A stretch of DNA of 360 nucleotides from Escherichia coli (GTDB lineage Bacteria > Pseudomonadota > Gammaproteobacteria > Enterobacterales > Enterobacteriaceae). Position 1 is the stretch's first letter. Every line of letters begins with the position of its first letter. Shown here one piece after another: positions 1 through 360 of this stretch. A model generated the notes under the pieces. The model was given only the letters and a program-made list of their open reading frames with translations. It did not search any database and was not told the DNA's origin. The translations under genes and the position numbers were made by a program. The stretch lies in the NCBI RefSeq assembly GCF_003334255.1, contig NZ_QOWU01000253.1; one strand, written 5' to 3'.

Positions 1-77
1 GGCTACGTAGCTCAGTTGGTTAGAGCACATCACTCATAATGATGGGGTCACAGGTTCGAATCCCGTCGTAGCCACCA
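1..77 (+). tRNA. metT: tRNA-Met, elongator type, anticodon CAU (CAT at 35-37); complete 77-nt gene with encoded CCA
   Basis: Acceptor stem 1-7 GGCTACG pairs perfectly with 67-73 CGTAGCC; discriminator A74; CCA at 75-77. Anticodon stem 28-32 CATCA pairs with 40-44 TGATG; 7-nt loop 33-39 CTCATAA has T two positions before CAT and A after. D-arm motif AGCTCAGTTGGTTAGAGC; T-loop TTCGAAT at 55-61. A fully paired G1-C72 end excludes initiator tRNA-fMet, which has an unpaired C1. Matches my recollection of E. coli elongator tRNA-Met; symbol assumes the first gene of the metT operon. Confidence 0.93.
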
Positions 78-195: not shown

Positions 196-270
196 TGGGG
201 TATCGCCAAGCGGTAAGGCACCGGTTTTTGATACCGGCATTCCCTGGTTCGAATCCAGGTACCCCAGCCA
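196..270 (+). tRNA. glnU: tRNA-Gln, anticodon UUG (TTG at 228-230); 75 nt with encoded CCA
   Basis: Acceptor stem 196-202 TGGGGTA pairs perfectly with 260-266 TACCCCA, giving the U1-A72 pair typical of bacterial tRNA-Gln; discriminator G267; CCA at 268-270. Anticodon stem 221-225 CCGGT pairs with 233-237 ACCGG; loop 226-232 TTTTGAT gives anticodon TTG. T-loop TTCGAAT at 248-254. Matches the tRNA-Gln1 (UUG) isoacceptor; I cannot tell glnU from glnW by sequence alone. Confidence 0.92.
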
Positions 271-285
271 TCGAAGAAACAATCT
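271..285 (+). other. 15-nt A-rich inter-tRNA spacer between tRNA-Gln and the second tRNA-Met
   Basis: Sequence TCGAAGAAACAATCT, purine/A-rich and unstructured; same reasoning as the other spacers. Confidence 0.5.
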
Positions 286-360
286 GGCTACGTAGCTCAG
301 TTGGTTAGAGCACATCACTCATAATGATGGGGTCACAGGTTCGAATCCCGTCGTAGCCAC
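286..360 (+). tRNA. metU: tRNA-Met, elongator type, anticodon CAU (CAT at 320-322); partial, truncated by the window edge 2 nt before the end of the CCA
   Basis: Positions 286-360 are base-for-base identical to positions 1-75 of the first tRNA-Met. The window ends at the first C of the CCA, so the gene presumably continues 2 nt beyond 360. Symbol is tentative, assuming the second Met copy of the metT operon. Confidence 0.9.

Follow-up and report, generated by a model that had tools for sequence, protein, structure and literature searches.

The 360-nucleotide stretch of Escherichia coli DNA analysed here (the window) is, in our confident though not final judgement, the promoter-proximal part of the metT operon in a contracted form that arose by a repeat-mediated deletion of 109 bp. 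The whole window is made up of four tRNA genes and three short spacers, all on the plus strand. ARAGORN places an elongator tRNA-Met(CAU) of the metT type at positions 1-77, a leuW-type tRNA-Leu(UAG) at 88-172, a single tRNA-Gln(UUG) at 196-270 and a metU-type tRNA-Met(CAU) at 286-360, the last being cut 2 nt short at its 3' end by the window edge; the anticodons read CAT, TAG, TTG and CAT in this order, and all four qualify as tRNA genes. The Rfam tRNA model (RF00005) scored them at 71.1, 57.6, 62.1 and 71.1 bits, respectively (gathering score 29 bits; E-values from 8.6e-16 to 4.5e-12). These scores exclude chance matches, and the four genes are thus genuine. The genes are separated by a 10-nt Met-Leu spacer at 78-87 (TCTTTTTTTT, a TCT8 sequence with a T8 run), a 23-nt Leu-Gln spacer at 173-195 (TTCACCAGAAAGCGTTGTACGGA) and a 15-nt Gln-Met spacer at 271-285 (TCGAAGAAACAATCT), such that the arrangement proposed from the letters alone, one Gln gene at 196-270 followed after 15 nt by a Met gene from position 286, was confirmed by both programs. 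The 75 nt of the second Met gene are identical to window positions 1-75. A scan of the window found no promoter-like or terminator-like sites, as expected inside a polycistronic tRNA operon.

Comparison with the metT operon of K-12 revealed no mismatch between any of the four tRNA genes and its K-12 counterpart: the first Met gene is identical to metT and metU, and the Gln gene to both glnU and glnW. The Leu-Gln spacer is identical to the K-12 leuW-glnU spacer, that is, to the 5' leader of glnU, and the Gln-Met spacer to the glnW-metU spacer, the 3' trailer of glnW. What is absent relative to K-12 is the 34-nt glnU-glnW spacer together with one 75-nt Gln copy. The K-12 array does carry two tandem tRNA-Gln(UUG) genes before metU, in the order Met-Leu-Gln(UUG)-Gln(UUG)-Met that the sequence-only reading had given, and the copy-number difference from K-12 that this reading had suspected is borne out by the single Gln(UUG) gene between Leu and Met in the window. 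The missing Gln makes the window an allele of the metT operon and not another locus, and the genomes that match the window exactly likewise hold their array between asnB and ubiF. A further difference from K-12 lies in the Met-Leu spacer and concerns the length of its T-run alone: the spacer measures 10 nt (T8) in the window, whereas K-12 has 9 nt (T7) and strain GF130 has 8 nt (T6). This T-run is polymorphic among E. coli lineages, T8 also being found in ST95-32 and in ST131-type genomes; the variation could be due to homopolymer slippage, or to sequencing error in some long-read assemblies.

The extent of the deletion can be read from two isolates of the same study. The window is an exact substring of the genome of E. 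coli AVS0747 (NZ_CP124467.1), whose array Met-Leu-Gln(UUG)-Met-Gln(CUG)-Gln(CUG) comprises six genes between asnB and ubiF, with the first Met gene coming first after asnB. Over 20.6 kb, the sole difference between AVS0747 and AVS0223, which has the canonical array, is a 109-bp indel corresponding to one 75-nt Gln gene plus the 34-nt Gln-Gln spacer, and hence to exactly one repeat period. Indeed, the two Gln(UUG) genes of the canonical array constitute a perfect direct repeat of 76 bp with a period of 109 bp, so that AVS0223 can be turned into AVS0747 exactly by taking out 109 nt at any one of 77 consecutive offsets. The Gln gene that remains (196-270) has a glnU-type upstream flank and a glnW-type downstream flank, with the deletion joint lying somewhere within the gene, and the undeleted parental allele, too, is found on the ST131 background, its flanks being the same in every other respect. 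Judged from these alignments, the 109-bp indel is the footprint of a repeat-mediated deletion, in support of the earlier suggestion that one Gln copy had been lost by recombination between near-identical tandem genes.

We propose that the glnU and glnW repeats, lying 34 nt apart, would misalign and that exactly one period would be lost as a result, the product being one Gln gene with the glnU leader and the glnW trailer. Considering the length and spacing of the repeats, the likely route would be replication slippage or sister-strand exchange independent of RecA, as earlier work on similarly short and close tandem repeats in E. coli suggests; unequal crossing-over that depends on RecA would be the alternative. 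In kind, the change should be reversible, given that the array is also found expanded. It resembles the repeat-mediated deletion and duplication of tandem tRNA genes, for which the duplicate tyrosine tRNA genes tyrT-tyrV of E. coli are an example, in that exactly one period is involved, that the end points fall inside a perfect direct repeat and that the reciprocal three-copy product is found in the E. coli population. RecA-independent deletion of short tandem repeats has reportedly been described by Lovett and colleagues (Genetics 1993, 135:631).

We then determined the frequency of these forms in 5,426 complete E. coli genomes. As plain megablast coverage is unfit for counting (overlapping pieces are joined, and K-12-like genomes also reach 100%), the counts were made at E-value cut-offs that call for one unbroken alignment over the full length. 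The canonical Met-Leu-Gln-Gln-Met-Gln... array was found in 5,284 genomes (97.4%), at a cut-off that also admits arrays without the last CUG copy. The contiguous Met-Leu-Gln-Met order is present in 71 genomes (1.3%), in 51 of which (0.9% of the sample) it is followed by two Gln(CUG) genes, and three tandem Gln(UUG) genes occur in 34 of the 5,426 (0.6%). Thus, about 97% of E. coli have two copies, and Met-Leu-Gln-Met is not the normal order of the source organism, a finding which, along with the 100% identity of the window to E. coli genomes, agrees with the earlier proposal of a strain with a shorter array. The backgrounds on which one-Gln arrays are found are K-12, B, W-derived and B2; the Met-Leu spacer in such arrays has a T8, T7 or T6 run, and identity over 597 bp ranges from 98.8% to 100%. 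Among laboratory strains, the contracted array is carried by the K-12 strains MG1655p and ME8067, by the B derivative AS19 and by the W-derived LY180 group; MG1655, MC4100 and one assembly of BL21 are canonical. Since the one-Gln form is found on several backgrounds, the contraction has arisen repeatedly, and the genome comparison indicates a copy-number polymorphism that is rare (∼1%) but recurrent.

The allele of the window is shared in full by a group of genomes from diverse sources. Twenty-one complete E. coli genomes are 100% identical across the whole 597-bp six-gene array, in which two Gln(CUG) genes come after the second Met gene. They come from at least seven submitters: 13 are AVS isolates from Swiss wastewater and rivers, and the remaining ones derive from at least six further sources and include a strain labelled O25b:H4-ST131. 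At least 59 other genomes, many with the label O25b:H4-ST131, match the 20.6 kb around the AVS0747 array at 100% identity, the match there spanning 20,710 bp, 109 bp more than in AVS0747. As deleted and canonical ST131 genomes do not differ at all in these flanks, the latter carry no clade signal. That the one-copy allele is more than a neutral slip and is inherited, and possibly favoured, in a sublineage of pandemic ST131, with the metT array acting as a fast-mutating tRNA-dosage locus, is a speculative idea to which we give little credence; if true, an ST131 sublineage would be left with a single essential gene decoding CAA.

Expanded and otherwise rearranged arrays are also found. In at least seven genomes, including TUM2805 (1217-2267 of the extracted locus) and GF130 (1218-2266 of the extracted locus), the array reads (Met-Leu-Gln(UUG))x3-Met and ends with a single Gln(CUG), which makes four genes for Met, three for Leu(UAG), three for Gln(UUG) and one for Gln(CUG). 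This array looks like the result of Met-Met recombination on an already contracted array, accompanied by the loss of one CUG copy. The ST95-32 array reads (Met-Leu-Gln-Gln)x2-Met-Gln-Gln. With contracted and expanded forms both on record, the array evidently changes in both directions. None of six commercial laboratory strains whose assemblies have adjacent accession numbers (XL1-Blue, XL10-Gold, Stbl4, TOP10, BL21(DE3) and Origami2-DE3) shows the canonical array: each has three Gln(UUG) genes in tandem or a more complex arrangement. In Origami2-DE3, a Met-Leu-Gln-Met unit lies within a larger array (999-2095 of the extracted locus). These six arrays may be a pipeline artefact at the repeat. 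Plasmids gave matches as well: the canonical seven-gene array is present in one plasmid record, and a perfect Gln(UUG) gene at two plasmid places, which could reflect an F-prime-like element or a misassigned contig.

The array was also followed beyond E. coli, by scanning species-representative genomes of Enterobacterales for the Leu(UAG)-Gln(UUG) junction. In this arbitrary sample of at least 120 loci, about 109 arrays could be resolved; among those listed, 85 have two Gln(UUG) genes before Met (including Salmonella enterica subsp. arizonae, Citrobacter, Enterobacter and the E. coli representative), 19 have one Gln(UUG) and then Met, four have one Gln(UUG) directly followed by Gln(CUG), and a single array has three Gln(UUG) genes. 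The two-copy form is therefore the majority among the Enterobacterales sampled and, on this distribution, is probably ancestral for Enterobacteriaceae. The taxa listed with one Gln include several Erwinia, Kosakonia sacchari, oryziphila and arachidis, Pluralibacter gergoviae, Siccibacter colletis, Pseudescherichia vulneris, Izhakiella and others, and in Erwinia, some of the Kosakonia and further genera the one-copy order seems to be the rule for the species. The number of Gln(CUG) genes ranges from one to three across the species surveyed; Mixta tenebrionis has an array with Met-Met, and Pantoea sp. 1.19 one with a trailing Gln(UUG). Many of these species arrays come from draft assemblies, and some may be collapsed.

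Three other explanations for the order seen in the window deserve consideration. An assembler could have merged the identical 75-nt copies of two tandem Gln(UUG) genes that are in fact present in the source strain, with the loss of one 109-bp period. The missing segment, being exactly one repeat period, is what a collapse would also give, and the six non-canonical assemblies with adjacent accessions, set beside another BL21 assembly that is canonical, hint that pipelines can misreport this locus. However, the repeat is only 76 bp long and the 34-nt spacer lies outside it, so that 150-bp or long reads would be expected to span it, and the same contracted allele recurs in the 21 complete genomes from at least seven submitters. 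Moreover, in the AVS study the contracted arrays among the matches listed all belong to the ST131-type haplotype, other AVS ST131 genomes being canonical, a pattern that fits inheritance better than random pipeline error. We therefore regard assembly collapse as unlikely, if still the most serious competitor of a true deletion.

Since the window begins and ends in a Met gene and does not itself show its surroundings, it might alternatively be an internal unit of an expanded (Met-Leu-Gln)n array, with no net reduction in Gln(UUG) genes; the arrays of TUM2805, GF130 and at least five others, as well as the unit inside the Origami2-DE3 array, give precedents. Against this, all expanded arrays seen have a T7 or T6 Met-Leu spacer as opposed to T8 in the window, and the T8 matches of 100% that were listed fall at a single place per record, the 597-bp matches continuing into two Gln(CUG) genes, which makes an internal unit very improbable. 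Least credible of all is an origin in another enterobacterial species for which Met-Leu-Gln-Met is the norm and the K-12 comparison would not apply. The 19 one-Gln arrays among the species representatives lend it some substance, and those of Erwinia, Kosakonia, Pluralibacter, Siccibacter and Pseudescherichia vulneris even share the order Met-Leu-Gln(UUG)-Met-Gln(CUG)-Gln(CUG), but these native six-gene arrays differ from the window in their spacers: the best full-length match of the window to the one-Gln species reaches 91.7% with gaps in the spacers, whereas the E. coli matches are 100% over 360 bp, 597 bp and 20.6 kb, and the Leu-Gln and Gln-Met spacers are those of E. coli. We rejected a foreign origin on this spacer identity.

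A contracted metT allele of E. coli thus being the preferred reading, we considered its expression. The asnB-metT gap, which lies upstream of the window, is 812 nt long in ST131-type genomes (9184-9995 of the extracted locus in AVS0747) versus 379 nt in K-12, a difference of 433 nt; within the extra sequence of AVS0747, a hypothetical ORF of 438 nt (WP_000943484.1) is annotated on the opposite strand. A disturbance of the promoter by the additional 433 nt was rejected, as the 252 nt directly upstream of metT in AVS0747 are 98.8% identical to K-12. The K-12 operon gives a single polycistronic precursor, which is cut apart mainly by RNase P (PMC2241853). Transcription of the contracted array from the unchanged promoter and its processing by RNase P should be normal, because both junction types exist in the wild-type precursor.

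The K-12 operon is essential and holds all Gln(UUG) genes (PMC11480407). In a genome-wide search with the 75-nt gene, each genome had between 1 and 4 near-perfect Gln(UUG) copies, the median being two. Strain 23AR0151, one of the exact-match genomes, has exactly one copy genome-wide, and therefore a single gene is left for the only CAA-reading tRNA. One-copy strains include clinical and environmental isolates; one copy is therefore enough for growth, and we infer that the fitness of the one-copy allele is tolerable.

A literature search found no paper on this allele or on glnU/glnW copy-number variation: Raval et al. 2023 (PMC9981150) say nothing of Gln tRNAs, and in a study in which the operon was engineered (PMC6265465) a single Gln(UUG) copy was never tested. 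That E. coli strains differ in their runs of tRNA genes has been described before (PMC2884548). In laboratory populations of Pseudomonas fluorescens SBW25, large-scale tandem duplications are reported to alter tRNA gene copy number (PMC7661048, PMC10954465). The E. coli case is akin to SBW25 in that tRNA dosage shifts through recombination between repeats and varies within a population, and differs from it in that the change is a 109-bp loss within the array, found in natural as well as laboratory E. coli, with no evidence of selection.

Taken together, the one-copy allele is an ordinary copy-number polymorphism of a textbook operon that is already annotated in dozens of public genomes, and it leaves the understanding of tRNA operons and of repeat-mediated rearrangement unchanged, adding little beyond bookkeeping. 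In practical terms, the repeat with its 109-bp period is useful as a check of assembly accuracy. For annotation and typing, tRNA gene counts vary in E. coli, with ∼2% of complete genomes deviating from the K-12 count at the metT array; for physiology, contracted strains have lost redundancy for the CAA-reading tRNA in an essential operon, such that their tRNA supply could shift slightly.
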